A stretch of 64,000 nucleotides of DNA from Patescibacteria group bacterium. GTDB taxonomy: Bacteria; Patescibacteriota; Patescibacteriia; UBA1558; GWA2-36-10. Made by a program: the position numbers and the translations under genes. Location: assembly GCA_018819405.1 (NCBI GenBank), contig JAHJQF010000001.1, forward strand, positions 98,097 to 162,096, read 5' to 3'. Positions 3,253-58,887 of this stretch are shown here, piece by piece. Under the pieces are notes generated by a model. It searched no databases and was not told the origin of the DNA. It saw nothing but the letters and a program-made list of their open reading frames with translations. The stretch's first letter is position 1, and every line of letters starts with the position of its first letter.

Positions 3253-3540
3253 TTGAACACTTCCAGACACTCTATCAGCCTGCACAGGTCTGATGGAAAA
3301 CTAGGGGTGGACTTTGACTCTCCTGAAACACTAGCCAAATTCTTGGCTATACTAATAGAGGAAGGAAAGCCCGAAAACAGCTACTTGATCCCGGTCTTAG
3401 AAAATAATGGTGTAGTACCCAGAGACAACCCAGACTTTCGAGCCTTGCTCGATAGATTAGGTGTCACCGACTACACTATTCCCAATGTTCTGCGCGCTCG
3501 CTTTTTAGAAAAACTCCCCAAACTAGAAAAGGAGTCATGA
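3253..3540 (+). CDS. Hypothetical protein, first gene of GC-rich island 1
   Basis: TTG start at 3253 with AAGGAGG 6 nt upstream. About 55% GC against a ~35% background. No recognisable domain. Confidence 0.5.
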   Translation: MNTSRHSISLHRSDGKLGVDFDSPETLAKFLAILIEEGKPENSYLIPVLENNGVVPRDNPDFRALLDRLGVTDYTIPNVLRARFLEKLPKLEKES

Positions 3541-3541
3541 C

Positions 3542-3991
3542 ATGGAATATGAACTCAACCTAGGTTGGTTCGAAAAACTCCCGCTTGACCAAAAGGACGG
3601 ACTGATCAAGAACATCGAGGTGCGTGCCTCCAGAGACCTGTTTTCGGACAGGGAAGTACGCCTGGCCGCTGATGTCTGCCTGCCCATCCTCCGGGCTATC
3701 CGCCAGGGTCATGGCATCACTGCTGAGAGTCTGGACCTGGTCCAGCTGGCTGAAAGCCGAGGATTTCGTCGCTCGGAGATTGAGCCTATCATCAGGAAAG
3801 CCTGGCATCTGTTTCAAACGCCAATTCCCACCAAGCGAGCCGCTCGCTACATCGGCAAATCGCCACGACAGGCCAGACGTTTAGTAGCTCGGATGGCTCG
3901 CCGTAACGATGATGTGATCAAGACCGCCAAAGGCTGGCTGGTTCCTCTGGCCGCTCTCGATTCCTACCTGACTGGCGAGTGGCGGCCATAA
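3542..3991 (+). CDS. Putative HTH DNA-binding protein (excisionase/AlpA-like C-terminus), GC-rich island 1
   Basis: Arg-rich C-terminal segment AARYIGKSPRQARRLVARMARR...GWLVPL looks like a helix-turn-helix. Its start overlaps the upstream gene's stop (ATGA coupling). Followed by the GC-rich hairpin at 4008-4051. Confidence 0.5.
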   Translation: MEYELNLGWFEKLPLDQKDGLIKNIEVRASRDLFSDREVRLAADVCLPILRAIRQGHGITAESLDLVQLAESRGFRRSEIEPIIRKAWHLFQTPIPTKRAARYIGKSPRQARRLVARMARRNDDVIKTAKGWLVPLAALDSYLTGEWRP

Positions 3992-4051: not shown

Positions 4052-4097
4052 CTATTAAACTTTATAAAAAAATATTGCCTATCGTTTATAATGTACT

Positions 4098-4208
4098 TTA
4101 CCCCGTTAAATAAACTCAAAGAATTTGAGTTTAATTTTAAGTGTTGCTTAAAATTATTTAACGGGGTAAACTAAACCCAGCACCTTTTTTAAAAAAGGTG
4201 CTGGGTGA
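4098..4208. repeat. CCCCGTTAAATAAA inverted-repeat pair, copy a, followed by a second hairpin
   Basis: TTTACCCCGTTAAATAA (4098-4114) and TTATTTAACGGGGTAAA (4154-4170) form a perfect 17-bp inverted repeat with a palindromic ACTCAAAGAATTTGAGT centre. Then CCCAGCACCTTTTTT/AAAAAAGGTGCTGGG (4175-4208). Confidence 0.75.
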
Positions 4209-5495: not shown

Positions 5496-5501
5496 ACCAA
5501 T

Positions 5502-5581
5502 TGTCATTACGAACGTAGTGAAGTAATCCAAACTTTTAGATTGCTTCGTCGTTCGCTACGCTCTCTCCTCGCAATGACAAA
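5502..5581 (+). repeat. ~80-bp hairpin-forming intergenic repeat, copy 1 (TTGTCATTACGA...TCGCAATGACAA)
   Basis: Homologous to the reverse complement of 8909-8992. Has terminal inverted repeats and an internal imperfect long stem. Ends 11 nt before the folD ATG. Confidence 0.7.
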
Positions 5582-6489: not shown

Positions 6490-7116
6490 TCACCGATGAC
6501 AAACAAACACTATTTGTCTGTCGCCAGCAAAAAACTCATCATTCTTGGAGCCAATATGCTTGCCCACAAGGAAATTGGTGGATGCAGCATCAGGGTGGAT
6601 GCAAAAAATGACCAGATCGCCACTAACTCTGAGTTTGACAGGTTCCATAGCCAAGTAAAGCCATTCGTTCCAATGTCCATAATGTTGCAAACGCAATTGG
6701 GGACCAAGCTCAAACGGACATAGACCGTAACCCAACTCCAGACCGCGTTGGCAGATGTCGGGGTAGCGCGCGCCATCCTTGAAGCCGAGTTCTGCCACAG
6801 TCGGAGCAACAACATTGACCTCCATGGGCTGATCAAGAATCTCAATGTCAGTCTGGTCCAACATAGCACCGCCTACACGATCAACCTTCATGCCTTTTTC
6901 AGCAAAGGCTTGATAGAAATCACGACTTGTCTTAAGACCCGTGCCGAGCTTTACTCGACACAATACTGGGGAAAACCCAAAGGCTTTGCGCAAAATAGCA
7001 CGGAGTTTTTCTGGTTTACTGACGTAGACCTCCATCTCTTGACTGGACATCGTGGGTAAGTTTTCCACGACCACAGCAACAAAAGTCAACACTAGGTTAA
7101 AAAGTGACTTCGGCAT
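6490..7116 (-). CDS. Hypothetical protein on a GC-rich segment (island 2)
   Basis: 208-aa ORF of about 50% GC inside a low-GC genome. I recognise no domain. Confidence 0.45.
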   Translation of the reverse strand: MPKSLFNLVLTFVAVVVENLPTMSSQEMEVYVSKPEKLRAILRKAFGFSPVLCRVKLGTGLKTSRDFYQAFAEKGMKVDRVGGAMLDQTDIEILDQPMEVNVVAPTVAELGFKDGARYPDICQRGLELGYGLCPFELGPQLRLQHYGHWNEWLYLAMEPVKLRVSGDLVIFCIHPDAASTNFLVGKHIGSKNDEFFAGDRQIVFVCHR

Positions 7117-7173
7117 GGCTGTTCTCCTTTATGAGGCTGGTGTTGGTTTAAGGGACACTAACTATCTAATATA

Positions 7174-7202
7174 TTGACAATTTATAAATTTGTCTATACT
7201 AT
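7174..7202 (+). promoter_or_regulatory. Sigma70-like promoter upstream of the TrmB-family regulator gene
   Basis: TTGACA at 7174-7179. TATACT or TACTAT follows after a 15-17 nt spacer, about 100 nt upstream of the ATG at 7300. Confidence 0.4.
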
Positions 7203-7299
7203 AAAACATAATTGTCATAAAAATACAAAAATTATATAATTTATCAAAATATTATCTAATATTAGTCAATAAAATATCTACATAAAATAATAATATTGT

Positions 7300-8055
7300 A
7301 TGAATATAGCTACAACTTTAAAAAATATTGGTTTTGATGATAATAAAGCCAGAGTATATCAGGCTTTATTATCCCTTGGTACTGCACCAGCTGGCGCCAT
7401 CGCCGCCAAATCTGGCATAGTAAGATCTACTGTCTATAAAATCTTGGAAGAGTTGATTAGTGATGGTTTAGCAGAAAATGTTGAGGGCAAGGTCAAAAAA
7501 TTTATTGCTCTACATCCAAGCGCCTTAATAAGAATGCTGGAAAATAAAAAAACAGCCACAGAAAATATTCTGCCAGAATTATTAGGAATATTTACCTCTC
7601 CAAAATTTAAACCTCGCCTGAAATTTTATGAGGGTCTAGATGGCAAGAAAAAAGTTTTTGCAGATATCTTAACTTTACAAAATGACATTGTCTATACTTT
7701 TTCCCCCATCCAAGAAATCCTAACTGTTTTTGGGAAAACCTACAGCAAACATTTTACAGAAAAAAGAGTAAAGAATAAAATTTGGCGCTATGCTTTGCGT
7801 TCAATTGAAACAACAGCCGACAAAACCAAAGAGTGGGAATTTTACGGCTCTGATGAAAAACTGATGCGACAAATCCGCTTTTTGCCGCCAAAAATAAAAT
7901 GCGATACTTTAATTCAAATATACGCTGATAAAATATCAGTCGTTGCCTCACATAATGAAAATTATGCTTTTATTATTGAGAGTAAAGAATTATCAGGCCT
8001 TATGAAACAATTATTTTTGTGGCTTTGGAATACAGCTGATAAACCATCACAATAA
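7300..8055 (+). CDS. TrmB-family winged-HTH transcriptional regulator
   Basis: N-terminal ARVYQALLSLGTAPAGAIAAKSGIVRSTVYKILEELISDGL matches the TrmB HTH pattern. 251 aa. Confidence 0.65.
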   Translation: MNIATTLKNIGFDDNKARVYQALLSLGTAPAGAIAAKSGIVRSTVYKILEELISDGLAENVEGKVKKFIALHPSALIRMLENKKTATENILPELLGIFTSPKFKPRLKFYEGLDGKKKVFADILTLQNDIVYTFSPIQEILTVFGKTYSKHFTEKRVKNKIWRYALRSIETTADKTKEWEFYGSDEKLMRQIRFLPPKIKCDTLIQIYADKISVVASHNENYAFIIESKELSGLMKQLFLWLWNTADKPSQ

Positions 8056-8908: not shown

Positions 8909-8992
8909 TTGTCATTGCGAGGAGCGAATAAAATGAGCGACGCGGCAATCTAAAAACTTCTAGATTACTTCGCTGCCGCTCGTAATGACGTG
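8909..8992 (-). repeat. ~84-bp hairpin-forming intergenic repeat, copy 2 (transcribed orientation on the minus strand)
   Basis: Reverse complement aligns with 5502-5581 over most of its length. Ends 12 nt before the start of the minus-strand gene 8105..8896. Confidence 0.7.
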
Positions 8993-17837: not shown

Positions 17838-18040
17838 ATTTGTAGTAGTTCATTGTTTTACTTCTTTAGCAAATAGTAGCTACACTAAAATCGCACAAAT
17901 GCACAAAGTGCTAGAAATAAAAACAAAACAATCTTAGTGAACTACTACCTTGCTCTGAAGACAATTAACAACTGAATATGGAAAACGTGGAAGTTTTCTA
18001 AAACTCCGTCGACATTGGGGCCGACGGAGTTTATTTTTGC
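17838..18040 (+). ncRNA. Candidate small structured RNA (promoter to terminator, about 200 nt, no ORF)
   Basis: 5' GTAGTAGTTCA (17842-17852) pairs with TGAACTACTAC (17938-17948). Ends at the hairpin AACTCCGTCG...CGACGGAGTT followed by TATTTTT (18001-18038). No plausible ORF lies on this strand. Confidence 0.35.
18001..18038 (+). terminator. Rho-independent terminator
   Basis: 10-bp stem AACTCCGTCG/CGACGGAGTT with a GC-rich loop, followed by TTATTTTT. Confidence 0.6.
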
Positions 18041-18194
18041 CAATTTTGCCTATGAACGAAGTGAGTAGTTACAAAATTGAGCACCTCGCGCAAACGGGGT
18101 AAAGCCAAGTAGCTTAAATATATATTCTTGACATACAATGAAAATAATGATAAAAATTGTTTATAAGACAATAAAATTAGTTTGATAGACAAAT

Positions 18195-18330
18195 TCACCC
18201 CGTTAAATAAATTCAATTTAATGGGTGATAATAGAAACCATATAGTATATTTTTAAAAAACATACAATAAACTAGCTAATTAATTGAATTTAAAATTTAA
18301 GAAACTTAAATTTTATTTAACGGGGTAAAT
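18195..18330. repeat. CCCCGTTAAATAAA inverted-repeat pair, copy b
   Basis: Left arm TTCACCCCGTTAAATAAA (18195-18212). Right arm TTTTATTTAACGGGGTAAAT (18311-18330) ends 1 nt before the ATG at 18331. Confidence 0.7.
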
Positions 18331-20208
18331 ATGAAAAATCTATTTAAATCACAAACTTCTTATGAAATCCTTGATTTATTTACCAAAAACCCAGATAAAA
18401 GTTGGTATATGGCTCAACTATCCAAAGAGCTTAGCAAAGATCCAGCCAATATCACCCGCGAGCTGGACAAGCTAACAAAAAACAATCTTGTCCTAGCCAA
18501 AAATCAAGCTAATAAAAAATACTACTCTCTCAACCATGACTATCGCTCTTTCAAAGAGTTGATAGACCTCTTTGAAAAAAACCGCAGCGCTGATTTCAAA
18601 GATAAATTCAATAGCCCCTGGCTTTTGGCTGAAGATATCCCAAATATGTGCCCGTTTTTTTCTCAAATATGGATGAATTGTTTTGTTGATGAATTTGCCA
18701 ACCCCAGCGGCCGCGCCTATCAAAAAGTAGTGGCTATTTTTAAGGATTATCACCTTTGGTTTTATTATGATAAAAAGGACGCCTATCAAGTAGGGCAAAA
18801 TATAGTAGACAAATTCCAAAAAGACCCCCGGTTTATGCAAGAGGTCAATCAAAATATTATAAAACTGTCTGATAAATTAACAGCTTATTGTCAAAAACTG
18901 CCCCAGGATAATCTGGAAAAATTATCAAACAAAAAACTGTGGGATTATTACAAAAAACATGAAGATGTCCATACTGACTACTATCGCTATGGGTGGCTCC
19001 CAGTAGCAGCTGATATGTTTGGCAATAATCTGACCGAAACCGGCAAAGAAATTTTAAGAAATATGGGCGTCAGCGATGATAATATGGCCGAATATCTTAT
19101 TTTACTTACCGAGCCAGCCAAGCCGTCACTCATCAAAATAGAAGAAGATGAAATAAAACAAATGGCCGCTGATATACAAGCTGACCTCAGACAATTTAAA
19201 TTATTTAAAGAGCTTTTCAAAAAATTCAAAGAGGAAGATGTAAAGCTCTTTGGCTTATATACTCACTCTCCTGAATATGAGGCCAAATTTGAAGAAAGAG
19301 TCAGAGAGCTTATCAAAAAAATTGATCCTAAGATTTCTAAAAAACTAGAAGATCACTACCAAAAATATTTTTATACAAAATTTTTATTTACTGAAGAGCA
19401 AGGTGTATATAATTTTGAACACTACCTAAAAAAACTTGTCCGACTGGTCAATAATGAGACAAACATCGGCAAAACCCTAAAAGATGAAGTCACGGCTACA
19501 AAAATAGAGCTAAAAAAAAGAGACAGCTTGATAAAAAAACTAAAACTATCATCTCAGCATAAAATATTTTTTGACCAGTGGGGTGAATTTATGATTACGA
19601 AAATATACCGTCGCTATGCCCAGCTTTTTGCCATCTATCGAATGGTGCCTATTATAGAACAAATAGGCAAAAGACTTGGTCTCAGCATCAAAGAAACAAA
19701 ATTCATGACAAGCGAAGAACTATACAACGCTTTATTTAAAAATAAATTAAACAAAGAAGAAATAAAAAAAAGAATACCTTTTTCCGTATATTATACCGAC
19801 AAAAATGAACACGCCTTTTATACTGGGCGCATGGCCAAACAAGCGACTGAAATAATCCAGACTGAAAATATAGAAGAAGTCTCTGAAATCAAAGGCCAGT
19901 GCGGAGCCCGTGGTCATGCCAAAGGACCGGTCAAAATAATAAATGTAATAGCTGACATGCAAAAAATGCAAGCCGGCGACATCCTCGTTTCTATCTCCAC
20001 CCAACCCGACCTTTTACCGGCCATGAAAAAAGCCGCCGCTTTCGTAACAGAACAAGGTGGGGTCACCTCTCACGCTGCCATAGTTGCCCGTGAATTAAAA
20101 ACGCCTTGTGTGATTGCTACCAAAATCGCTACCAAAGTATTAAAAGACGGCGACTTGGTAGAAGTAGATGCTGATAAGGGTATTGTAAAGATTTTGAATA
20201 AGAAATAA
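18331..20208 (+). CDS. Winged-HTH / PEP-utilizing-enzyme mobile (swivel) domain fusion protein
   Basis: The N-terminus SYEILDLFTKNPDKSWYMAQLSKELSKDPANITRELDKL reads as a wHTH. The C-terminus GGVTSHAAIVARELKTPCVIATK carries the phosphohistidine-domain motif of PEP synthase / PPDK / rifampin phosphotransferase. 625 aa. Confidence 0.6.
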   Translation: MKNLFKSQTSYEILDLFTKNPDKSWYMAQLSKELSKDPANITRELDKLTKNNLVLAKNQANKKYYSLNHDYRSFKELIDLFEKNRSADFKDKFNSPWLLAEDIPNMCPFFSQIWMNCFVDEFANPSGRAYQKVVAIFKDYHLWFYYDKKDAYQVGQNIVDKFQKDPRFMQEVNQNIIKLSDKLTAYCQKLPQDNLEKLSNKKLWDYYKKHEDVHTDYYRYGWLPVAADMFGNNLTETGKEILRNMGVSDDNMAEYLILLTEPAKPSLIKIEEDEIKQMAADIQADLRQFKLFKELFKKFKEEDVKLFGLYTHSPEYEAKFEERVRELIKKIDPKISKKLEDHYQKYFYTKFLFTEEQGVYNFEHYLKKLVRLVNNETNIGKTLKDEVTATKIELKKRDSLIKKLKLSSQHKIFFDQWGEFMITKIYRRYAQLFAIYRMVPIIEQIGKRLGLSIKETKFMTSEELYNALFKNKLNKEEIKKRIPFSVYYTDKNEHAFYTGRMAKQATEIIQTENIEEVSEIKGQCGARGHAKGPVKIINVIADMQKMQAGDILVSISTQPDLLPAMKKAAAFVTEQGGVTSHAAIVARELKTPCVIATKIATKVLKDGDLVEVDADKGIVKILNKK

Positions 20209-20310
20209 CCAGATCCCGCTATACAGCGGGATGCTCGATTTTGCATCTAGTCGCTTCGCTCTAGACAAAATCGGCAGAAGTAGATGCTGATAAGGGTATT
20301 GTAAAGATTT
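20159..20310 (+). repeat. 36-bp direct repeat (AGAAGTAGATGCTGATAAGGGTATTGTAAAGATTTT) flanking an ~80-bp hairpin-rich insert
   Basis: Copy 1 at 20159-20194 encodes the C-terminus of the 18331..20208 gene. An identical copy lies at 20275-20310. The insert contains the ATCCCGCT-ATAC-AGCGGGAT hairpin (20213-20232) and CGATTTTG...CAAAATCG. Confidence 0.8.
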
Positions 20311-20318
20311 TAAAAAAA

Positions 20319-21356
20319 TCATAGCCTATTTTTAGTAATTATCATGGCGTCACCAAAAGAAAAAAATCTATATTTTTTGGCAACAGCTTTTTGATAAGTT
20401 TTGATTATTAGTTCACGACTAGCCAAAGCTGAGACCATAAATAGTAACGAGCTCTTGGGCAAATGAAAATTAGTAATCAAATCATCTGCAAACTTATATT
20501 TGTAACCAGGATAAATATAAATATCTACCCATTTAACCCCAGGGGTTAAATCACCTGTTTTGTCTGAAAAAGCCTCTAGCGTCCGGGCGCTGGTGGTGCC
20601 AACTGCTATTATATTTTTGCCTGTTTTTTTTAGTTTGTTTAATGCTTCAGCTGTCTTTTTATCAATCCTGGCCCACTCATGGTGTATTTTGTGTTTTTCT
20701 ATCTCCTCTGCTTCCACTGGAGCAAAGGTGCCAAGTCCAACATGCAAAGTAACTTTAAAAATCTTAATGCCTTTTTTTGACAGTTGTTTTAAAACACGAT
20801 CGGTAAAATGCAATCCAGCAGTCGGAGCCGCTGCCGAGCCAATACTACGAGCATAAATAGTCTGATAATCTTTTTTAATTTTTTGACTGTCTTTGGTCTT
20901 GATATAAGGCGGCAGCGGCGTATGACCAATATTATCAATTATCTTGTCCAATTCTTTACCTGATTTATTAAATTTGACTTGTTTAGTCTTGCCATCTATA
21001 TCTTTAATAATTTTGGCTTCTAATTTTTTATCAAAATAAATAGCATCTCCTACTTTTAGATTACGGCCACCAATCATGGCTAGCCAACCCGACGGGTTGA
21101 CCCGATCTATAAGTAATATTTCTACTTTACCACCGGTACTTTTATGCCCATAAAGACGGGCTGGAAATACCTTTGTTTCATTGACCACCAAAACATCATT
21201 GCTAGTCAAAATGTCTGGCAAATCATAAAAATGCTTGTGGGCAATTTTTTGTTTAGCGCTATCTAAAATCAAAAGGCGCGAATGATCGCGTGGTTTTATT
21301 TGTTTTTGAGCTATTAGCTCATGAGGTAAATTGTAGTCAAATAATTTTATATTCAT
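20319..21356 (-). CDS. queA: S-adenosylmethionine:tRNA ribosyltransferase-isomerase
   Basis: The N-terminus MNIKLFDYNLPHELIAQ is a QueA signature. The track ORF extends spuriously upstream, so the start is placed at the ATG at 21356. Confidence 0.85.
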   Translation of the reverse strand: MNIKLFDYNLPHELIAQKQIKPRDHSRLLILDSAKQKIAHKHFYDLPDILTSNDVLVVNETKVFPARLYGHKSTGGKVEILLIDRVNPSGWLAMIGGRNLKVGDAIYFDKKLEAKIIKDIDGKTKQVKFNKSGKELDKIIDNIGHTPLPPYIKTKDSQKIKKDYQTIYARSIGSAAAPTAGLHFTDRVLKQLSKKGIKIFKVTLHVGLGTFAPVEAEEIEKHKIHHEWARIDKKTAEALNKLKKTGKNIIAVGTTSARTLEAFSDKTGDLTPGVKWVDIYIYPGYKYKFADDLITNFHLPKSSLLFMVSALASRELIIKTYQKAVAKKYRFFSFGDAMIITKNRL

Positions 21357-27179: not shown

Positions 27180-27554
27180 ATTTTTTACTGCTTTTTTATA
27201 CCTATTAACGTCTCTAATTTTATCATAAATAATATTGGAAGTAAACCCCGTTAGAGAATCATATTTGCCTATAAAATAAGGCCGAAATTGGATTTTTACC
27301 AAGCTAATTTAAGTTTAAAAATAAAGTTATAAAATTAAGTTCACTCTCTATCGGCATAAAGATAAGAATGCCCAAAAAAATAAGCTAAAAAAGGTCTTTT
27401 TTCAATCTTTGATTGCTCCTAGTACAGGGGCTTGATTTTTTTCTTAGTTTGTGTTAATCTAAGGCGGCTATTTAAAACTAATTTAACAAGCTCTCAAGGC
27501 CTGAACCCTTGAGAACTCGACCCGCTTGCGGGGAGGGATAATCATTAATAATTA

Positions 27555-31901: not shown

Positions 31902-33635
31902 ATGGCAGACCAATCTGGCCTCGCAGCTATATCTGGTGATGAGAAAACAAGAAAGCTGCAAAGCAAACTATCAGAGCTAGAATTAAGAGAAAAAGAAAAG
32001 CGTATCCAGGAACAAGCTGATAAAATCGGCGTGTCTTATATTAATTTGGACAAATTCCCTATTTCACAAGAAGCTATCAAAATAATCTCAAGAGAACAAT
32101 CTGAGTCTTTGGAAACTGTCTGTTTTTTATACACTGGTAATGAAATGAGACTGGGCTCTCTCAATCCCACTAATCCTCAAGTGGCCAATTTAAAAAAAGA
32201 ATTATCAGAGATATACCACACCCAAATAAAGGTATATCTAATATCAGAAAATAGTTTTCAAAAAGCCACTCAAATATATAACAAAATCCCCCAGATAATC
32301 CAAATGGAAGGGGTTACTATTACTTCCGAGGACTTGGAAAAATACCAAAAACAGCTCACCAATTTTGAAGATCTCAATAAACTAATCCAAGAAACCCAGC
32401 TGACTGAAACTCTAAATATCGTCATATCAGCCGGCCTTACTTTTGGCGCATCTGATATCCATATTGAAGCCGAAGAAAAAGATGTAAAAATCCGATTGCG
32501 TATGGATGGCGTACTTCATGACGTGGCTTCCCTACCCCGTGATACCTGGGACAAAATAAACTCTCGTATAAAATTATTGTCTGGATTAAAATTAAACTTG
32601 AACAATAAACCACAAGACGGACGTTTTACTATACATTCGGACAAAGAAAAAATAGACGTCAGGGTATCCTCTATTCCAACGGCTTATGGTGAAAGTATTG
32701 TCATGAGGCTACTCAAAGCTTCCGTCGTTGGCTTACAATTTGATAGCCTTGGTCTACGTGGCAAATCATATAACGATCTAAAAAATGAAATGGGTAAGCC
32801 AAACGGCATGATCATTTCTACTGGTCCTACTGGTAGCGGTAAAACCACTACTTTATATGCCATTCTCAATCAACTAAACAACCCACAAACAAAAATAATT
32901 ACTCTAGAAGATCCAATAGAATATAAGTTGCCTGGTATTGTCCAAAGTCAGGTTGAAAATATTGATTCAAGTCAAGAAGAATTAGACGAAGGAACCACCA
33001 GAAGAAATATCCATTACACTTTTGCCCGTGGTTTGAGAGCTATACTTAGACAAGACCCAGATATAGTAATGGTTGGTGAAATTAGAGATTTAGAAACCGC
33101 TGACACGGCTATCAATGCCGCTCTTACCGGACATTTGATGCTTTCTACACTACACACCAACTCAGCGGCTGGCACTATACCACGTCTACTGGCTATGGGC
33201 GTAAAGCCATTTCTATTGGCTCCAGCTTTGAACGCCATAATTGGTCAAAGATTGGTTCGCAAGTTGTGCCAATACTGTAAAGAGGAGGACCAAGAAATCG
33301 ACAATGCAACTATGACTGTTATTTTAAACGCCTTAAATGAAATCAGCCCTGAGTCAGGTCACAAACCAAGCGATTTAAATAACCTGAAATTTTATACTTC
33401 CAAAGGCTGTGAAAAATGTCAGAATATCGGCTATAAAGGCCGAATCGGAATTTATGAGGTATTTTTGATGTCCCCTGAAATAGAAAAAATAATTTTATCG
33501 GACAATACTTCAGAATATGAGCTAGAAAAAATAGCCATCAATAATGGAATGATAAGTATGCTCCAAGATGGCCTGCTCAAAGCTTTAGAAGGCATAACTT
33601 CAATCTCTGAAATATTTGATAAAGTAAAAGACTAA
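31902..33635 (+). CDS. pilB: Type II/IV secretion system ATPase (PilB/GspE family)
   Basis: GPTGSGKTTTLYA Walker A, the GEIRD motif, and a C-terminal tetracysteine (CQYC...CEKC). 577 aa. Confidence 0.85.
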   Translation: MADQSGLAAISGDEKTRKLQSKLSELELREKEKRIQEQADKIGVSYINLDKFPISQEAIKIISREQSESLETVCFLYTGNEMRLGSLNPTNPQVANLKKELSEIYHTQIKVYLISENSFQKATQIYNKIPQIIQMEGVTITSEDLEKYQKQLTNFEDLNKLIQETQLTETLNIVISAGLTFGASDIHIEAEEKDVKIRLRMDGVLHDVASLPRDTWDKINSRIKLLSGLKLNLNNKPQDGRFTIHSDKEKIDVRVSSIPTAYGESIVMRLLKASVVGLQFDSLGLRGKSYNDLKNEMGKPNGMIISTGPTGSGKTTTLYAILNQLNNPQTKIITLEDPIEYKLPGIVQSQVENIDSSQEELDEGTTRRNIHYTFARGLRAILRQDPDIVMVGEIRDLETADTAINAALTGHLMLSTLHTNSAAGTIPRLLAMGVKPFLLAPALNAIIGQRLVRKLCQYCKEEDQEIDNATMTVILNALNEISPESGHKPSDLNNLKFYTSKGCEKCQNIGYKGRIGIYEVFLMSPEIEKIILSDNTSEYELEKIAINNGMISMLQDGLLKALEGITSISEIFDKVKD

Positions 33636-33677: not shown

Positions 33678-36530
33678 CTATTTTAATTTGTTTTTGGCTT
33701 CTTGAAGCCGTTTTTTTGTTTCCTCAATCACATCAACTGGAGCATTTTTTACAAAACTTTCATTTTGAAGTTTTGCTTCCATCCCACCAATATACTTTTG
33801 TAAATCTTTTCTTTCTTTATCGGTCATTTCTTTGGATAGGTCAATATATACTATACTGCTGTTTATATACTTTGCCTCCACATCCAATCTATGATCTGAC
33901 AATGTAACTCGAGCCATCTGAGAGGCCAAAATTAAATAATCATCGTCTAAAATTTTGCTCTCAATATAACAATCTGGAAAATCAGTCGGTGCTATTTTGT
34001 TTTCGGCCTTCAAATTCCTAATGGCTACTACCAGCTCCTGAAGCTCAGCAAAATCCGATATAATATTATCATCAAATTTTACTGTCTCTGGCCATTTTTT
34101 AATCATCAGTAGCTCAGCCTGACCAAATTCCTGCCAAATTTTTTCTGTTACAAATGGCGTAAAAGGATGAGATAAAATAAGAAGTTTTTCTAAAATATAA
34201 AGTAAAATATCATCTTTCTCTTTTTCTATTTTGGATATCTCCAAATACCAGTCAGCTAATTTGTTCCAAGAAAAATCATAAATTTTTTCACCAGCTGCCG
34301 ATATTCTAAAATTGTCCATATCATCACTTACTTGACCGATTAGCTTATTTAACTCCGCTAAGATCCAACGGTCGGCCAATGTCTTGACTGGTGGTTGTTT
34401 GACAACCGGTCTTATATCTTCTACAAAATTAAATATAAATCTGGATATATTCCAAAGTTTGTTTACAAAATTTCTGTAGCCGGCAATTTTTTCTTCATAA
34501 ATACGCAAATCAGCTCCCGGAGAAGAGCCGATTATCAAAGATAGACGCAAAGCATCTGTGCCAAACTTCTCTATCATTTCCAAAGGATCAATACCATTAC
34601 CTAGTGACTTGGACATTTTTTGACCCTCTTTATCTCTGATAAGGCCGTGGAGATAAACTGTATCAAATGGTTTATCTTTTAAAATATACTGACTCATCAA
34701 TATCATCCTGGCCACCCAAAAAAATATAATATCATAACCCGTTTCCAGGACAGAAGTAGGATGAAATAAATCTAAGTCTGCTTTTTGACTATATATAAAT
34801 TCATAGCACCATAAGTCTGTATCGTCGGTGATATCTTTATCAGGATAATACTTTTTGAACACGTCTTTAAAATCATCGGTATTATTATATTTTTCATGAC
34901 CCGCCTGCTTTAAATCCAAATCTTTAAATTTTATAATCTTTACATCAATAATCCTAGCATAACCAAAATTTTCTTTGCTCTGAGAATTTTCCAAAATTAC
35001 TGTCTCGCCTTTGGAAAAACCTTTATCAGACAATCTATAAGTTTTTTTCTTTTCTCCGCTTTTTATAATAGCTATTAAGTCTTTATCAAAAGACAATTTT
35101 TTATCTAATGGCCAGCCTAGGGTTGAAAAAGTCCAGAGCGATGAAGAAAACCAAGTATCCAAAGTAGCTTCATCTTGAATTATTTTTTTTCCTTTGGCTT
35201 TGACTTTAGCTTCTGCTTCATTGTGGGCTACTATGATATCGCCTTCTTCGTCATACCAAACAGGTATTCTGTGACCCCACCATATTTGACGTGAGATGCA
35301 CCAGTCGTGCAAATTTTCCATCCAATGAAAATATATTTTAGAAAAACGCTCCGGTAATATTTTTATTTCGCCACTTGATACTGCTTCTGTAGCCAACTCT
35401 TTTAGACTTTTGCCTCTACCAGGTATTTTTTTATCAACTGCCACAAACCACTGCTCTGATGTAAGCGGTTCAATTGGAGTGTCACAACGGTAACATATAG
35501 ATAAATTATTTTTAAAATCTTCTATCTTATCAATTTGACCGGCCTTCTCTAAATCTTTGACAAAAGCTTGTCTGGCCGCTAGGACTGTCAGGCCTTTATA
35601 CTTGCCGCCGCTTTCCAATATCTTACCCTGTTCATCAATCAGCTTGATAATTTCCAAACTATGGCTTTTGGCAAAATCATAATCAATAGCACTGTGAGCC
35701 GGAGTAACACCAATTACACCAGAACCAAAATCTTTATCAACTGTCAAATCAGCAAAAACTTTTACTTTTATTTTGTGTCCTGCCAAATCTACTTCTAAAG
35801 TCTGGCCAGTATATTCTTTATACCTTTTGTCATCAGGATGAACAGCTACTCCGGTATCAGCCAGCTTGGTCTCTGGTCTAGTAGTGGCTACTATAAAAGG
35901 GCCATATTTTATATAATACAATTTAGCCATCTGCTCTTTGTATTCTACTTCATCATCAGCCAAAGTAGAGGCACATCTTGGGCACCAATTTACAATCCTA
36001 TGGCCACGGTATATCAAAGAGTCTTCATACATTCTAATAAAAGCTTCGCTGACAGCGTAGGATAAACCATCATCGTATGTATATCTTTCTCTTGACCAAT
36101 CACAACTAGAGCCCATCTTCCTAGTCTGATGTCTGATAGTGCCTTGTGAATTCGCTACATAATCTTTTACTCTTTGCAAAAAAACTTCCCGACCCAAGGT
36201 CTGTCTATCTGCGCCCTCTTTAGCCAATATTTTTTCTACTTTAGTCTGGGTTGCAATAGCTGCGTGATCCGTACCAGGTAACCATAGAACTTTTTTACCT
36301 TTTAACCTGTTGTACCTAACCATCAAATCTTCATAAGCCAAAGCAGAGGCGTGCCCTAGGTGCAACACACCAGTAGCATTTGGTGGTGGCATAGCAATAC
36401 TAAAATATTCTTTGCTTTCTTTTAAATTGTCAGGATTAAAAAAACCCGATTCTTCCCAAATTTTATAAATATCATCCTCATATAAACCAGGCTCATATGC
36501 CTTAGCTAATTCTTCTAATTTTTTGGCCAT
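33678..36530 (-). CDS. valS: Valyl-tRNA synthetase
   Basis: PPPNATGVLHLGHA (HIGH) and KMSKSLGN (KMSKS), with ValRS-like spacing. 950 aa. Confidence 0.85.
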   Translation of the reverse strand: MAKKLEELAKAYEPGLYEDDIYKIWEESGFFNPDNLKESKEYFSIAMPPPNATGVLHLGHASALAYEDLMVRYNRLKGKKVLWLPGTDHAAIATQTKVEKILAKEGADRQTLGREVFLQRVKDYVANSQGTIRHQTRKMGSSCDWSRERYTYDDGLSYAVSEAFIRMYEDSLIYRGHRIVNWCPRCASTLADDEVEYKEQMAKLYYIKYGPFIVATTRPETKLADTGVAVHPDDKRYKEYTGQTLEVDLAGHKIKVKVFADLTVDKDFGSGVIGVTPAHSAIDYDFAKSHSLEIIKLIDEQGKILESGGKYKGLTVLAARQAFVKDLEKAGQIDKIEDFKNNLSICYRCDTPIEPLTSEQWFVAVDKKIPGRGKSLKELATEAVSSGEIKILPERFSKIYFHWMENLHDWCISRQIWWGHRIPVWYDEEGDIIVAHNEAEAKVKAKGKKIIQDEATLDTWFSSSLWTFSTLGWPLDKKLSFDKDLIAIIKSGEKKKTYRLSDKGFSKGETVILENSQSKENFGYARIIDVKIIKFKDLDLKQAGHEKYNNTDDFKDVFKKYYPDKDITDDTDLWCYEFIYSQKADLDLFHPTSVLETGYDIIFFWVARMILMSQYILKDKPFDTVYLHGLIRDKEGQKMSKSLGNGIDPLEMIEKFGTDALRLSLIIGSSPGADLRIYEEKIAGYRNFVNKLWNISRFIFNFVEDIRPVVKQPPVKTLADRWILAELNKLIGQVSDDMDNFRISAAGEKIYDFSWNKLADWYLEISKIEKEKDDILLYILEKLLILSHPFTPFVTEKIWQEFGQAELLMIKKWPETVKFDDNIISDFAELQELVVAIRNLKAENKIAPTDFPDCYIESKILDDDYLILASQMARVTLSDHRLDVEAKYINSSIVYIDLSKEMTDKERKDLQKYIGGMEAKLQNESFVKNAPVDVIEETKKRLQEAKNKLK

Positions 36531-37006
36531 AATATTGTTATCTTTCTTTTGTCACCTTCTAATAATTTTATATCTACTCTTATAGTTCTTTCTGGTAAAT
36601 TTACAATTTTGTCCGCCCATTCAATAGCTACTATTATATTATCATAGTTTAGATAATCGCCTAAACCTATATCATAAAGATCATCTTGACCTCGCAAACG
36701 ATAGCAATCAACATGAACAAACTTATCAGCTTTTTTATGCTTTACCCCGTTAAATTGCGGCTCAGCTGCACCTCGCATGTGCGAGGATTTAACGGAGTGA
36801 ATATCATAAACTTTCATCAAAACAAAAGTCGGACTGGTAATCTGCTCTTTTATCTTGAGCGCTTTGGCTAGTGCTTTTACAAATACCGTCTTACCGGCTC
36901 CCAGATTACCGCTCAAAGCTATCAGCTCCCCGCCTTCTAATCTATCGGCCAAATCATTAGCTATTTGAGCCGTTTCTTTTTGGTTATTTGATATGTATTC
37001 TTTCAC
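36515..37006 (-). CDS. tsaE: tRNA threonylcarbamoyladenosine biosynthesis protein TsaE, with an internal insertion
   Basis: GNLGAGKTVFVK P-loop and the ...CYRL motif. GTG start. About 20 extra aa (SVKSSHMRGAAEPQFNGVKHKKADK) coincide with an intragenic copy of the CCCCGTTAAAT repeat. Confidence 0.75.
   Translation of the reverse strand: MKEYISNNQKETAQIANDLADRLEGGELIALSGNLGAGKTVFVKALAKALKIKEQITSPTFVLMKVYDIHSVKSSHMRGAAEPQFNGVKHKKADKFVHVDCYRLRGQDDLYDIGLGDYLNYDNIIVAIEWADKIVNLPERTIRVDIKLLEGDKRKITILWPKN
36745..36798. repeat. CCCCGTTAAAT inverted-repeat pair, copy c (inside tsaE), with an inner CCTCGCATGTGCGAGG palindrome
   Basis: CCCCGTTAAAT (36745-36755) and ATTTAACGGAG (36788-36798). About 60% GC inside a low-GC gene. 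Confidence 0.6.
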
Positions 37007-37078
37007 CCCGTTAGAAATTAATGATTAAATTTTATTTTCCCCGTTCATATATAAGCCTTATAATTTTTAACGGGGTTT
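37004..37078. repeat. CCCCGTT(A)AAAT repeat cluster, copy d (tsaE/tsaD intergenic)
   Basis: CACCCCGTTAGAAAT, TTCCCCGTTCAT and, on the opposite strand, TTTTTAACGGGGTTTAT. Confidence 0.55.
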
Positions 37079-37088
37079 ATTTTATTTA

Positions 37089-49365: not shown

Positions 49366-49393
49366 AAGTATTCATACTTTTTAAAAATAAAAA

Positions 49394-49429
49394 CAACCCT
49401 GCACCATAACGGTGCAGGGTTGTTTTTTG
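49394..49429. terminator. Bidirectional terminator (AACCCTGCACC-ATAA-CGGTGCAGGGTT)
   Basis: 11-bp stem flanked by an A-run and a T-run, between convergent genes. Confidence 0.75.
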
Positions 49430-49432
49430 TTG

Positions 49433-50752
49433 TTATAATAAAAATGGTAAGTATAATTCTACAATTTTTTTGGCATTGGTAAGAAACGGCCAAAGATATT
49501 CTATGCCACCTATATCATAAATATAATATGGAGCCCAAACTCTAAAAAGACCTATTATATTTATCAAAAAAGAAATTAAAAATAAATAAATAAATAAATT
49601 TACCAGCTTATGCCCCGGTTTTTCTCTAAAAAGAAAAGTAATAAAAAAATATAAAATAGGTGTCGGTGCCAAAAACCAACGAAAGCCATAGGCAGCGCCG
49701 GCATAGGCTCGGGAGCCAAAAGCATAAAAAATATAAATAGCCAAAAATGTCAGTGCCACCAAAATAGCTTCCCAAAAAAAATCTTTGTTTTTATTTTTTA
49801 ATAATTTATAAAGCCCAAAAAATGATAATAGCAAAATAGGCGAATAGAAAAACAAGCCATGCGTACCAAAAAATATATTGAATGTATAGACAAGCAAAGA
49901 ATGCTTAAATATATTACCCTTTGCTTCTAAATTCCACATCTGTCCGTTGACAGACCACATTTCACTATGCAGTTGGGGTGGTAGTATATCGCCGGTAATC
50001 TGAATATTTAAATAAAGATGTAAAGAAAACAAAAATATCGCTGGTAAAATATAATAAAAAATATTTTTTGCCCCATAACGAAAAAAATAATAAATAAAAA
50101 ATCCACTAAAAAATGCTAAACCAGTTGGTAAGTCTATAACAGCAGCCAAAGCTGCTAAAAGTCCTGACCAAAAAATCCATTTTTTCTTAAAGCCCTGGAT
50201 TTTTAATAAACATAAATAATAAAAAGATATAAATAAAAATGAACCGGCTATTGTATGATTGTTAAAAACTGTAGAGTATGGCAAATACAAAGTTGCTAAC
50301 GCTAAGCCGGCCAAGAGACGATAGCGGTATTTTTTTTCAATATCTATCAAAATCAAAATTTGATAAAAGTAATATAAAAGTAATATAAAACTTCCCCCAA
50401 CCAACAATAAATTGATAACATAAACAGCTGGCAAAGAAAATCCATGGCTCAAAAAAGGCTTGGTCGGCAGCTCCCAGGAAAAGATATGGTAAAGAGGATA
50501 ATATATACCGGCCGCTACTACTGACAAAAATGGCGGCTTGGAAGAATAAAAATTTCCCTCTCTAAAAATCTTGTCATCTGTATTTACATTATTTTCTGTG
50601 ATAATAAAACTACCATTTTTGACTAATGAATTTATAGTCAGATAGCGCGAAGATGAATTGGTGCTAGGTATATCAGAATCAGTAAAAATAAAAAGAAAGG
50701 CCACAATAGCAAGCAAAAAAAAGGCTAATTTGTGCTTTTTAAAAAAACTCAT
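49433..50752 (-). CDS. GT-C-like polytopic membrane glycosyltransferase (ArnT/PMT_2-like)
   Basis: More than 10 TM helices. In an operon with the GT2 and CTP-transferase-like genes. Confidence 0.5.
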   Translation of the reverse strand: MSFFKKHKLAFFLLAIVAFLFIFTDSDIPSTNSSSRYLTINSLVKNGSFIITENNVNTDDKIFREGNFYSSKPPFLSVVAAGIYYPLYHIFSWELPTKPFLSHGFSLPAVYVINLLLVGGSFILLLYYFYQILILIDIEKKYRYRLLAGLALATLYLPYSTVFNNHTIAGSFLFISFYYLCLLKIQGFKKKWIFWSGLLAALAAVIDLPTGLAFFSGFFIYYFFRYGAKNIFYYILPAIFLFSLHLYLNIQITGDILPPQLHSEMWSVNGQMWNLEAKGNIFKHSLLVYTFNIFFGTHGLFFYSPILLLSFFGLYKLLKNKNKDFFWEAILVALTFLAIYIFYAFGSRAYAGAAYGFRWFLAPTPILYFFITFLFREKPGHKLVNLFIYLFLISFLINIIGLFRVWAPYYIYDIGGIEYLWPFLTNAKKIVELYLPFLL

Positions 50753-58803: not shown

Positions 58804-58812
58804 ATAAAAAAA

Positions 58813-58848
58813 CAGCCCTGCATCGTAACGGTGCAGGGATGTTTTTTT
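58813..58848 (+). terminator. Rho-independent terminator (CCCTGCATCG-TAA-CGGTGCAGGG) after tig
   Basis: Same hairpin family as 49394-49429. Followed by a T7 run. Confidence 0.75.
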
Positions 58849-58887
58849 ATTTGATTAAAAATGCTATAATTTATATATAAATAAAAT

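Follow-up and report, generated by a model that had tools for sequence, protein, structure and literature searches.

A probable selfish palindromic element lodged between and within the genes of a Patescibacteria genome

Results

The window that we analysed, a 64,000-nt stretch of a Patescibacteria genome, holds five to six loci with elements of 55-136 nt. A full Y-shaped copy lies on the minus strand in the leader of glyA, at 4097-4170, with its left arm at 4097-4111, two hairpins at 4112-4132 and 4133-4155, and its right arm at 4156-4170. The original prediction had seen perfect 17-nt arms here, which is correct (4097-4113 and 4154-4170), except that its left arm was off by one nucleotide and that the spacer measures 40 nt. 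This copy folds at -31.5 kcal/mol (z = -7.4). Beside it, at 4175-4208 on the plus strand, stands a simple hairpin insert, CCCAGCACC..GGTGCTGGG followed by TGAA. Its ends share the CCC...GGG-TGAA style and it may be a related minimal member of the family; its covariance model score of 8.8 bits is a weak match to a generic-hairpin model.

A long copy (136 nt, 18194-18329, minus strand) occupies the 5' leader of a gene for a wHTH/PEP-domain protein and ends 1 nt before its ATG. It consists of a left arm (18194-18208), a degenerate internal right arm (18216-18228) and a right arm (18315-18329); the longer arms proposed originally are to be read as 18194-18211 and 18312-18329, and the right one does stop 1 nt short of the ATG at 18331. 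Further upstream, between a terminator hairpin and a TTGACA promoter, an insert of about 90 nt specific to the window (18037-18127, plus strand) carries a solo right arm, AAACGGGGTAAAG, and GCACCTCGC, and is probably a decayed copy. The solo arm had been noticed before as AAACGGGGTAAA, about 9 nt from where we find it (18092-18103), and GCACCTCGC at 18081 beside it indeed recurs at 36768, in a copy within tsaE.

The tsaE gene runs on the minus strand (36515-37006) and contains, antisense to it, a copy on the plus strand at 36741-36801 that adopts the Y fold. The predicted location inside tsaE is right; its arms belong at 36741-36755 and 36787-36801, the second with 2 mismatches. A degenerate composite copy on the minus strand (37002-37079) fills the tsaD-tsaE spacer, where the three arms reported earlier are all present (37065-37079, 37035-37045 and 37002-37016) and the GTG start of tsaE (37006-37004) falls within the last of them. 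In general the arms lay where the original prediction had placed them, give or take 1-10 nt.

The motif family itself is real. ACCCCGTT has 9 exact matches in the window where 0.65 are expected, about 14-fold over shuffles, and TTTACCCCGTT with at most one mismatch gives 8 matches against 1.2 expected, a number that 0 of 100 shuffles reached; a chance origin of the arm repeats is thus ruled out by the shuffles. A tenth CCCCGTT, at 27246, is intragenic, has no partner and is probably due to chance. A covariance model built from foreign copies and run over the window recovers 4095-4172 (58.6 bits on the minus strand, 56.3 on the plus), 36739-36803 (44.6 bits), 37000-37081 (23.3 bits) and 18192-18231 (22 bits), and beyond these four copies it gives no match below E = 0.09.

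All arm pairs in the window fold as a Y, in which a conserved 15-bp basal stem, TTYACCCCGTTAAAT / ATTTAACGGGGTRAA, bears two inner hairpins with no unpaired base at the junction. The unit reads 5'-[TTYA] CCCCGTTAAAT, hairpin 1, hairpin 2, ATTTAACGGGG TRAA-3', and as a single strand it forms a three-way junction whose inner hairpins usually close on 3-nt loops: 36 of the 41 clean copies have no junction base, and triloops make up 66 of the 82 loops. Constant arms around variable spacers had been predicted. The arms are constant, kept as identical 11-mers across phyla, but the spacers are not arbitrary, being two hairpins whose sequences are wholly different from copy to copy while their pairing is kept by compensatory change. 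In fact, the share of paired cells is 94.2%, compared with 76% in shuffles and 34-53% with the partners slid; double-sided changes number 689 against 188 in shuffles; and all four Watson-Crick types are found at each of 14 inner pairs. Basal-stem pairs are also maintained by compensatory change, and the third one is frequently a U-G wobble in one orientation. Identical 11-mers in both arms are unusual for a miniature inverted-repeat element (MITE) and hint at a constraint beyond transposase recognition.

To see what these sites look like when empty, we compared them with a sister genome (sample ERZ23510489, loci L001, L127 and L130; 77-89% protein identity, with TsaE at 86%, SHMT at 89% and the PEP protein at 77%). 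The element is missing there from all four orthologous sites: the glyA leader, tsaE codons 70-88, the tsaD-tsaE spacer and the PEP-gene leader. In the glyA leader, L127 reads GTGC directly followed by TAAACTAAA, where the window reads GTAC, 70 nt and then TAAACTAAA, so that the inserted DNA is 4097-4166 and the TAAA at 4167-4170 belongs to the host; comparison of the empty and filled sites reveals no direct repeat. The hairpin at 4175-4208 is likewise absent from L127, in which CTAAA runs straight into TAGCGTAATTAAT. The sister tsaD-tsaE spacer (L001 9932-10000) is unrelated sequence without CCCCGTT. In L130, L131 and L129 the PEP-gene leader runs from a conserved TTGACA promoter to the ATG without the element, and in L130 and L131 the promoter directly follows the terminator, without the insert seen at 18037-18127.

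No arm-type match (CCCGTTAA or CCGTTAAA) occurs in about 43 kb of syntenic sister DNA (L001, L127, L130), and a covariance model search of L001 and L127 gave no match. One lone CCCCGTT heptamer, without a partner, sits at L001 7483. When closer relatives of the PEP gene were sought in metagenomes, one 60%-identical locus came up; it too lacks the element, and it has diverged too far to give boundaries to the base. By this comparison of sequences, the window copies are lineage-specific insertions. The glyA and PEP-gene leaders are the clean empty sites, and the base-level boundary would be set by one of them (glyA), together with compatible but ambiguous cases.

The copy within tsaE is an exact 57-nt block of 19 codons in a surface loop, at a place where the Thermotoga maritima protein has 4 residues. 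The insert spans 36745-36801 if the preferred boundary is taken, with a junction that is ambiguous by 1-4 nt, and it encodes HSVKSSHMRGAAEPQFNGV between VYDI and KHK. These 19 extra in-frame residues are absent from about 115 of the 120 orthologues listed, among them the closest one (P0002) and the 140-aa orthologues, and both Pfam and PDB alignments of TsaE are broken at residues 68-96. A homologous copy at L005 shows compensatory changes in its arms (GTC AAA / TTT GAC), and two other loci (L004, L006) carry decayed copies. Distant lineages, unlike closer ones, have the element at the same codon, for which either several gains at a hot spot or several precise losses are needed.

TsaE is not alone in this. 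In-frame copies are found in PolA (twice), EF-G, UvrB, RecG, ATP synthase gamma and an amidotransferase. The core length of copies within ORFs is 2 mod 3 in all but one, the exception lying in a doubtful 93-aa ORF, and the inserted unit must therefore be the core plus 4 nt. Copies whose inserted length is a multiple of three lie in frame, and translation runs on through them to give an additional loop of 17-20 residues (...PVK...FNGV...). Integration proceeds without target-site duplication. Four bases beyond the CCCC...GGGG core arrive with the element, and the flanks, TTTA...TGAA, are inverted rather than direct. A fixed-tetranucleotide site is seen in one clean case, with the insert immediately 5' of a host TAAA, and the tsaE junction is compatible with it, clean sites being few. 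The core-plus-4 rule and a tandem at zero spacing (L071) also fit fixed-tetranucleotide insertion, again with few clean empty sites to go by.

The original prediction had called for a search in related genomes. While the sister genome lacks copies at the orthologous sites, the motif is present across many phyla. An exact-arm scan of 185,579 GTDB species genomes, in which about 1 match is expected by chance, found at least 120 loci that yielded at least 126 elements. The matches listed come from CPR (candidate phyla radiation), Omnitrophota, WOR-3, Stahlbacteria, Cloacimonadota, Bacteroidota and others, and judged by its arms the element is common to many unrelated, mostly uncultivated bacterial phyla. 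Other genomes hold hundreds of copies, and the model adds copies with variant arms, which in an Omnitrophota MAG reach a density of one per 2-2.5 kb. Copies sit in spacers, 5' leaders and gene ends as well as in frame within genes; in L071 they stand back to back, with 0 nt between them, and in WOR-3 and Stahlbacteria a related class lies directly upstream of an AT-tract and a TTGACA promoter.

The genes around the copies have little in common. All-against-all clustering of the neighbour ORFs of the 120 loci listed gave no family present in more than 6 loci, the largest clusters being type IV pilus ATPases, aminoacyl-tRNA synthetases and similar proteins. A phage as vector of the element found no support either, with 0 arm matches in 2.9 million viral contigs. 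Rfam found only four tRNAs in the window at gathering score, none of them at the element, and no element match at E <= 1 in ten element-bearing loci. Literature searches with the arm sequences (in DNA and RNA spelling) and those of a second family, and for MITEs in Patescibacteria and REPs in CPR, returned nothing relevant.

What could move such an element? None of the 50 ORFs of the window is a transposase or recombinase by Pfam, and none of the 126 loci examined has an arm pair flanking an ORF; because of this the element has no known autonomous partner, and its mobility is deduced from comparison only. Arm pairs 0.5-3 kb apart were also considered as autonomous elements and yielded no plausible transposase; the single candidate, at L107 7221-7785, holds other hairpin repeats only. 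The element does have a polarity: in 9 cases against 2, TTTA...TGAA flanks go with the short hairpin in first place. Its model scores on the two strands can be as much as 45 bits apart, and the two criteria of orientation agree in just 26 of 37 cases. A crude test for association of orientation with local GC skew or gene direction found none, so a lagging-strand bias of the IS200/IS605 type is unsupported.

Discussion

We propose that the TTTACCCCGTTAAAT / ATTTAACGGGGTAAA pairs are, in all likelihood, copies of a hairpin-forming selfish element that arrived recently, both between genes and in frame within them. The sequence evidence makes it highly probable that this is a small, non-autonomous, palindromic mobile DNA that behaves like the Rickettsia palindromic elements or REPs.

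Could the arms instead serve the host? They had been proposed as binding sites of a dimeric regulator, in which case they would be operator half-sites (for a TrmB-like or DUF134 protein, for example) and the pairs would control adjacent genes. Their inverted symmetry would suit such a role, as would the several copies in promoter or leader regions and the WOR-3/Stahlbacteria class just 5' of its promoter. However, the half-sites are spaced anywhere from 25 to about 110 nt apart and the spacer itself is selected for pairing; copies lie in frame within PolA, EF-G, UvrB, TsaE and other coding sequences of housekeeping genes; the loci have no neighbouring gene family in common; the orthologous promoters of the sister genome work without the element; and the element occurs in phyla with unrelated regulators. 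We thus consider an operator very unlikely. Even less credible are DNA-uptake-type signals like the DUS pairs of Neisseria, read by a type IV pilus/competence machinery and spread by recombination. Such signals are short, conserved and often in inverted pairs, the DUS bears a superficial resemblance to ...TGAA, and CPR genomes contain genes for type IV pilus ATPases, of which the window has one (31902-33635). Uptake signals are lineage-specific, though, whereas the same sequence is found here in many phyla and is missing from 43 kb of the sister genome, and the copies are discrete 55-136-nt insertions with structured interiors rather than motifs gained by point mutation.

A functional structured RNA deserves somewhat more attention, and we still regard it as improbable. 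It could act in cis-regulation or processing, as an RNase III site or stabiliser, or as a translational hairpin or Shine-Dalgarno surrogate, and it would explain the strong covariation and the U-G wobble favoured in one orientation, the two right arms abutting start codons, and the position of the 18194-18329 copy, in a 5' UTR with a conserved promoter upstream. Yet copies point either way with respect to host genes, sense and antisense within ORFs, without a shared gene context and without an Rfam match at gathering or E-value thresholds. Most loops are triloops closed by C-G pairs, whereas selected RNA helices typically carry GNRA/UNCG tetraloops. The suggestion that a G-rich right arm might replace a ribosome-binding site fares no better: about 45 of 52 window genes have A/T-rich leaders without any Shine-Dalgarno-like motif, and a surrogate is unneeded in a genome that mostly lacks such motifs. 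Orthologues of both start-abutting genes begin normally without the element, and any insertion into such very short spacers would leave an arm against the start codon. Nor is the element a terminator, because no T-tract follows it; the terminator scan reports none at elements, the right flank is TRAA, and convergent genes flank just 6 of the 77 intergenic copies.

This leaves mobile DNA, and the question of which kind. The MITE-like reading of the original prediction captured much of what we see, namely dispersed lineage-specific insertions with inverted arms of about 15-17 nt that form a large family; the target-site duplication that it proposed to look for is missing. In fact, the copies show classical MITE traits (they are non-coding, shorter than 300 bp, numerous and dispersed, with terminal inverted repeats), and a deletion derivative that shares the terminal inverted repeats of its parent insertion sequence, mobilized by a DDE transposase with a fixed target duplication such as TA, would be consistent with the 15-17-bp repeats, with nested and tandem copies and with the TA dinucleotide found beside both core ends in many copies. 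Such a derivative has, in our view, a low probability. The clean empty site lacks a duplication and the flanks are inverted rather than direct; a TA duplication predicts core plus 2, and this fits neither the 57-nt tsaE insert nor the rule, observed in all but one of the copies within ORFs, that core plus 4 is 0 mod 3. Models with a TA or 4-bp duplication are thus ruled out by the empty site and the length rule. Besides, no long element with these arms was seen, and selection on the inner hairpins would go unexplained.

How, then, would the selfish element that we favour move? It would insert beside a host TAAA, or TTTA as read on the opposite strand, and this tetranucleotide would then lengthen the basal stem. 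Movement would probably involve single-stranded DNA in folded form, on which a putative sequence- and structure-specific enzyme would act. The nearest parallel may be found in the HUH enzymes of IS200/IS605, REP-RAYT or IS91; these work next to a fixed tetranucleotide and leave no duplication. HUH elements do not typically have long perfect terminal inverted repeats. Effects on neighbour genes, such as a strong hairpin near two start codons or extra protein loops, would be by-products and not the reason for the element. Much more tentatively, and with doubts of our own, we can imagine a cross-phylum class of strand-polar three-way-junction elements in which selection acts only on the fold and the 15-bp stem, and which integrate without duplication by pairing of their ends with TAAA/TTTA. 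In CPR, Omnitrophota, WOR-3, Stahlbacteria and others they might be moved by an enzyme new to transposition or by a host DNA-processing activity common to these groups, and they would routinely give essential proteins additional loops of 17-20 residues.

The genomes of the candidate phyla radiation are generally portrayed as small, streamlined and poor in mobile DNA. The present one, of roughly 1 Mb, would have gained at least 6-8 small palindromic insertions in 64 kb since its split from the sister lineage, one of them within an essential tRNA-modification gene. Many of the small spurious ORFs and "lineage-specific insertions" of MAG proteins may be due to the element, which can break homology-based domain calls, as seen for TsaE. 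It would also be a ready source of new surface loops and leader hairpins. A fold that is kept over sequence, with no duplication, points to a recombinase or nuclease that acts on structured DNA, and the arms could be used as a marker of horizontal exchange among these organisms.

Several known systems resemble the element in part. Rickettsia palindromic elements (Ogata et al. 2000, 2002) are described, in the summary given by PMC10969869, as palindromic sequences of non-coding origin that lie in frame in unrelated housekeeping genes, where they are translated, and also between genes, and that have no known transposase. Like the present element, they are in-frame intragenic and intergenic palindromes tolerated by proteins. 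They measure about 100-150 bp, however, and are confined to Rickettsia with family-specific sequences, whereas the compact form of the present element takes 51-60 nt, is found in many phyla, and combines an invariant 15-bp basal stem with two freely varying inner hairpins. We thus see it as their analogue and not as a member, set apart by size and host range as these are described.

REP/REPIN-RAYT systems (Y1 HUH) share short high-copy hairpins, a conserved tetranucleotide by the palindrome, tandem and inverted clusters, the lack of target duplication and a presumed single-stranded DNA biology. REPs, in contrast, are extragenic single imperfect hairpins of species-specific sequence with a GTAG-type motif, while the present element is also intragenic, folds as a three-way junction and has arms common to several phyla. 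The IS200/IS605-derived PATEs and IS91-type elements insert at a fixed tetranucleotide without duplication, as the present element may do, and have strand polarity and two hairpins near their ends; their target reuse leads to head-to-tail tandems like that of L071; they differ in lacking long terminal inverted repeats, in conserving the sequence of their hairpins and in a replication-strand bias, of which we detected none. Neisseria Correia elements, ERIC and other bacterial MITEs are likewise small, bear terminal inverted repeats and land in leaders, where they can carry promoter-like hexamers and form RNase III-type stems, but they make TA or other duplications, keep their internal sequence and do not extend beyond a genus or family. 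Integron attC sites were considered too: the GTTAAAT / ATTTAAC of the arms fits their core consensus GTTRRRY / RYYYAAC, and attC also acts as a folded single strand, sometimes with a branched top. We rejected attC since the order is reversed in every copy (GTT... 5', ...AAC 3'), copies are isolated and intragenic, and there are neither cassette arrays nor an integrase in the window; with its arm order inverted, the duplex of the present element stands upside down relative to attC.

The motif and its fold in the window

Within the window, the motif TTTACCCCGTT occurs eight times with at most one mismatch (1.2 expected) and the exact octamer ACCCCGTT nine times (0.65 expected), a count that no shuffle reached, so that the motif is enriched at this scale. 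The predicted inverted repeats are also present, although small slips in their exact coordinates had to be corrected. We place the arms at 4097-4113 and 4154-4170 (glyA leader, perfect 17-mers), 18194-18211 and 18312-18329 (leader of the wHTH/PEP-domain gene, hereafter PEP gene), 36741-36755 and 36787-36801 (inside tsaE) and 37002-37016, 37035-37045 and 37065-37079 (tsaD-tsaE spacer), with a solo arm at 18092-18103. A tenth CCCCGTT at 27246, within a coding region and lacking a partner arm, is probably a chance occurrence.

All window pairs share one predicted fold, in which the arms form a long basal stem and two inner hairpins abut both the stem and each other, giving a Y. Predicted fold energies are -31.5 kcal/mol (z = -7.4) for the glyA copy and -26 to -30 kcal/mol for the tsaE copy. 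Inner stems are 9-10 bp long in two AT-rich copies but short and G+C-rich in the tsaE copy; thus, the fold is kept and the sequence is not.

Insertions relative to a sister genome

Over three stretches, roughly 43 kb in all, the window is syntenic with a sister genome recovered from sample ERZ23510489: tsaD-tsaE-valS (L001; TsaE identity 86% over aligned columns), radical-SAM to glyA-folD (L127; SHMT identity 89%) and PEP gene-queA (L130; marker protein identity 77%). An arm-type match (CCCGTTAA or CCGTTAAA) is absent from these stretches, their sole CCCCGTT heptamer is an unpaired one in L001, and a covariance model of the element found no match in L001 or L127. Judged by this comparison, the window copies are insertions.

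The glyA leader offers a clean empty site. Where the sister joins ...ATAATGTGC directly to TAAACTAAATAGCGTAATTAAT, the window reads ...ATAATGTAC, the element (TTTACCCC...AACGGGG), TAAACTAAA, a further 34-nt hairpin insertion (CCCAGCACC...GGTGCTGGGTGAA) and TAACGTAATTAAT. The element is a 70-nt insertion directly 5' of the host TAAA, with no target duplication. Of the MITE-like reading in the original prediction, the lineage-specific insertion is borne out by the empty sister sites; the target-site duplication for which it proposed a test is absent. The PEP leader in L130 and in another relative, L131, runs from a conserved terminator through a conserved TTGACA-17-TAAATA promoter to the ATG; relative to both, the window has an extra insert of ~90 nt, which holds the solo arm and separates terminator from promoter, and a 136-nt copy 1-5 nt ahead of the ATG (18331). 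The element is also absent from this leader in a more distant orthologue (L129). In the tsaD-tsaE spacer, the sister sequence is unrelated to that of the window.

Other differences lie nearby. At 20157-20326, a 62-nt hairpin-rich insert (20211-20272) is flanked by two direct 54-nt copies of the PEP-gene 3' end, 87% identical; in L130, the two genes (PEP gene and queA) overlap at their 3' ends, and duplication seems to have preserved both C-termini upon insertion. The valyl-tRNA synthetase (33678-36530, minus strand) carries an inserted ASCH domain at residues 479-578 and has 950 aa versus 844 in the sister; a free-standing ASCH gene occurs near the glyA region of a related genome.

A copy inside tsaE

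The window TsaE (NCBI protein MBU1202542.1, on a 1.04-Mb contig) has 163 aa, and about 115 of the 120 homologues listed have 136-145. Its Pfam and PDB alignments are interrupted between residues 68 and 96, where T. maritima TsaE has just four residues. The alignment places 19 extra residues, HSVKSSHMRGAAEPQFNGV, after VYDI and before KHK; this block is missing in the closest orthologue and is exactly the element (57 nt), antisense to the element's preferred orientation. Joining GATA, ahead of the copy (TTCACTCC...GGGG), to TAAAGCAT behind it restores GAT ATA AAG CAT (DIKH), compatible with insertion next to TAAA. A distant orthologue (L005, 61% identity) carries a 54-nt copy at the identical codon, with both arms altered in a compensatory manner (CCCCGTCAAAT / ATTTGACGGGG) and different inner hairpins, and decayed versions are found in tsaE of L004 and L006. 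Closer orthologues lack the element, and therefore the site was either hit repeatedly or cleared by several precise losses.

The family in other genomes

We scanned GTDB, one genome per species, with the pattern CCCCGTTAAAT-N25-55-ATTTAACGGGG, for which we estimate about one match by chance (6x10^11 positions x 31 spacings / 4^22). At least 120 loci match, and those listed hold 126 elements. By record titles, the matches listed include the CPR lineages Moranbacteria, Parcubacteria, Saccharibacteria, Gracilibacteria, Doudnabacteria, Portnoybacteria, Taylorbacteria and Levyibacteriota, and outside CPR Omnitrophota, WOR-3, Stahlbacteria, Cloacimonadota, Zixibacteria, Gemmatimonadota, Calditrichaceae, Desulfobacterales, Bacteroidota MAGs and several MAGs titled Gammaproteobacteria. 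Chance may account for the few single matches in Williamsia, Mucilaginibacter and SAR202, whose interiors are atypical. A scan of 2.9 million viral contigs for the arm pair gave no match.

Among the 126 elements listed, 45 are clean Ys, and their inner hairpins have no sequence in common. An unpaired junction base is absent from 36 of 41 stringently selected elements, whose loops are mainly triloops (66 of 82, mostly GAA/TTC and AAA/TTT) with C-G closing pairs in 57 of 82. The covariance model, seeded with ten copies, gave 199 strand-matches across 100 sources, many with variant arms, and the density reaches one per 2-2.5 kb in Omnitrophota AUK068. In its alignment, which is fitted to the model and so biases these figures toward structure, 94.2% of cells pair (76% in shuffles, 34-53% with slid partners), double-sided changes number 689 cells versus 188 in shuffles, all four Watson-Crick types occur at 14 of 14 inner pairs, and several basal-stem pairs covary too; ungapped seed alignments give the same pattern. 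Weak model matches in the window are generic hairpins (49382-49442, 58801-58861 and 17998-18035) that seem to be ordinary bidirectional terminators; the first two are 80% identical (AACCCTGCACC..GGTGCAGGGTT) and bordered by runs of A and T.

In WOR-3, Stahlbacteria, Cloacimonadota and Zixibacteria, CCCCGTTAAAT arms surround a conserved interior of ~40 nt with no hairpin pair. These second-class elements sit within arrays of a 10-nt repeat, TCTGCGTNNN, directly upstream of AT-tract and TTGACA promoters (L016, L017, L033, L053, L121 and other WOR-3/Stahlbacteria loci); the array could be a promoter-proximal iteron, an activator site or a preferred target. At Stahlbacteria and WOR-3 loci (L061, L079, L111, L114), a GTCATTGC[GT]AG arm, which belongs to another palindromic family, forms one flank of some CCCCGTTAAAT elements, and thus elements nest in or beside each other, like selfish repeats.

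The window also holds two copies of this second palindromic insertion family, each of ~80 nt, at 5500-5580 (plus) and 8910-8990 (minus), with arms TGTCATTACGA... / ...CTCGCAATGACA and an inner hairpin GAAGTAATC..GATTGCTTC. Its copies end ~12 nt ahead of a start codon (folD, 5593; an RNase_H_2/WYL gene, 8896), and the first is missing in L127, where glyA and folD overlap. At L107 (7200-7800), simple hairpins related to the arms, each with one stem, CTCGCCCCGTTAGAT-loop-ATCTAACAGGGCGAG and CGCCGTTAGAA-loop-TTCTAACGGGGCG, suggest a wider superfamily of CCCCGTTA-type hairpins beyond the Y-shaped form.

Genomic context and alternative functions

Between 16 and 18 of the 126 elements listed lie within long ORFs, to which Pfam assigns DNA polymerase I (twice), EF-G, UvrB, RecG, ATP synthase gamma, glutamine amidotransferase and polysaccharide deacetylase. 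Each arm has stops in two of three frames, and the sole open frame (...PVK...FNGV...) needs a core, the CCCC...GGGG stretch, of length 2 mod 3. All in-ORF copies obey (47, 50, 53 or 56 nt) except one of 51 nt, which lies in a 93-aa ORF of L087 that is itself doubtful; thus, the inserted unit is the core plus 4 nt. Many other copies overlap a gene's final 8 or 12 nt, the arm providing the stop codon, or touch a start codon, as expected when insertions enter very short spacers.

Could the arms instead serve the host? The original prediction offered binding sites of a dimeric regulator, an idea contradicted by copies within genes, by spacers that have a structure and by the absence of any regulon: no ORF family is common to more than 6 of the 120 loci listed, the top clusters being housekeeping genes. 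A functional RNA may arise as a side effect, given that the 136-nt copy must place a 15-17-bp stem beside the PEP-gene start codon and that the glyA copy holds a promoter-like pair, TTGAGT-18-TAAAAT. As the family's reason, it is contradicted by orientation-independent copies, unshared gene context and the lack of any matching Rfam family. Intergenic copies show no enrichment between convergent genes (6 of 77), and no T-tracts follow them. The G-rich arms had also been proposed as ribosome-binding surrogates, an idea that does not hold, since Shine-Dalgarno sequences are hardly used in this genome: such motifs are almost lacking at start codons of the window, where the leaders of about 45 of 52 genes are A/T-rich. 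The arms match the core consensus of attC sites to the letter, in the wrong order. We consider it likely that the element is a palindromic insertion element of a mobile or selfish kind.

AAGGAG(G) is most evident in the leaders ahead of 3253, 3542, 6490 and 38426, of which at least the gene at 6490 belongs to a two-gene block (6490-8055) with a TrmB-like regulator that is not in the sister genome. At 3253-3991 (plus), two ORFs of 95 and 149 aa meet at a TGAcATG junction, with 69% and 46% identity to a single 244-aa HTH_17-type protein of the sister; this split could reflect a pseudogene, translational coupling or recoding.

Polarity and possible mechanism of movement

How might such an insertion element move? 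It is polar: with the shorter hairpin placed first, its flanks read TTTA...TGAA in 9 cases versus 2 in reverse, and covariance-model scores differ between strands by up to 45 bits. One flanking tetranucleotide would be the host target, pairing with the TRAA end of the element; at L071, two units stand at zero spacing behind one TTTA, the product expected if an unaltered target is re-used. The substrate may be a folded single strand. C-GAA-G triloops are a hallmark of stable DNA mini-hairpins, and tetraloops are favoured in selected RNA helices. By analogy, the mobilising enzyme may be akin to HUH transposases such as those of IS200/IS605, REP-RAYT or IS91. However, the long perfect terminal repeats are atypical of these systems, orientation is associated neither with local GC skew nor with gene direction, the two polarity criteria coincide in only 70% of cases, and no transposase of any kind was found among 50 ORFs of the window or between the arm pairs at other loci. 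We thus regard movement by an HUH or single-stranded DNA mechanism as rather unlikely.

Relation to known elements

No Rfam model matches the element, and we found no paper with the arm sequences or with MITE/REP-type repeats in CPR, in a literature coverage that is incomplete and leaves room for an earlier description. Functionally, the nearest known things are the Rickettsia palindromic elements, whose copies enter housekeeping genes in frame (PMC10969869), and REP/REPIN repeats. On the features compared, however, the element belongs to neither. It is a palindromic mini-insertion of unusual architecture, a three-way junction conserved in fold and not in sequence, which is also set apart by the absent duplication and by its unusually wide phyletic spread.
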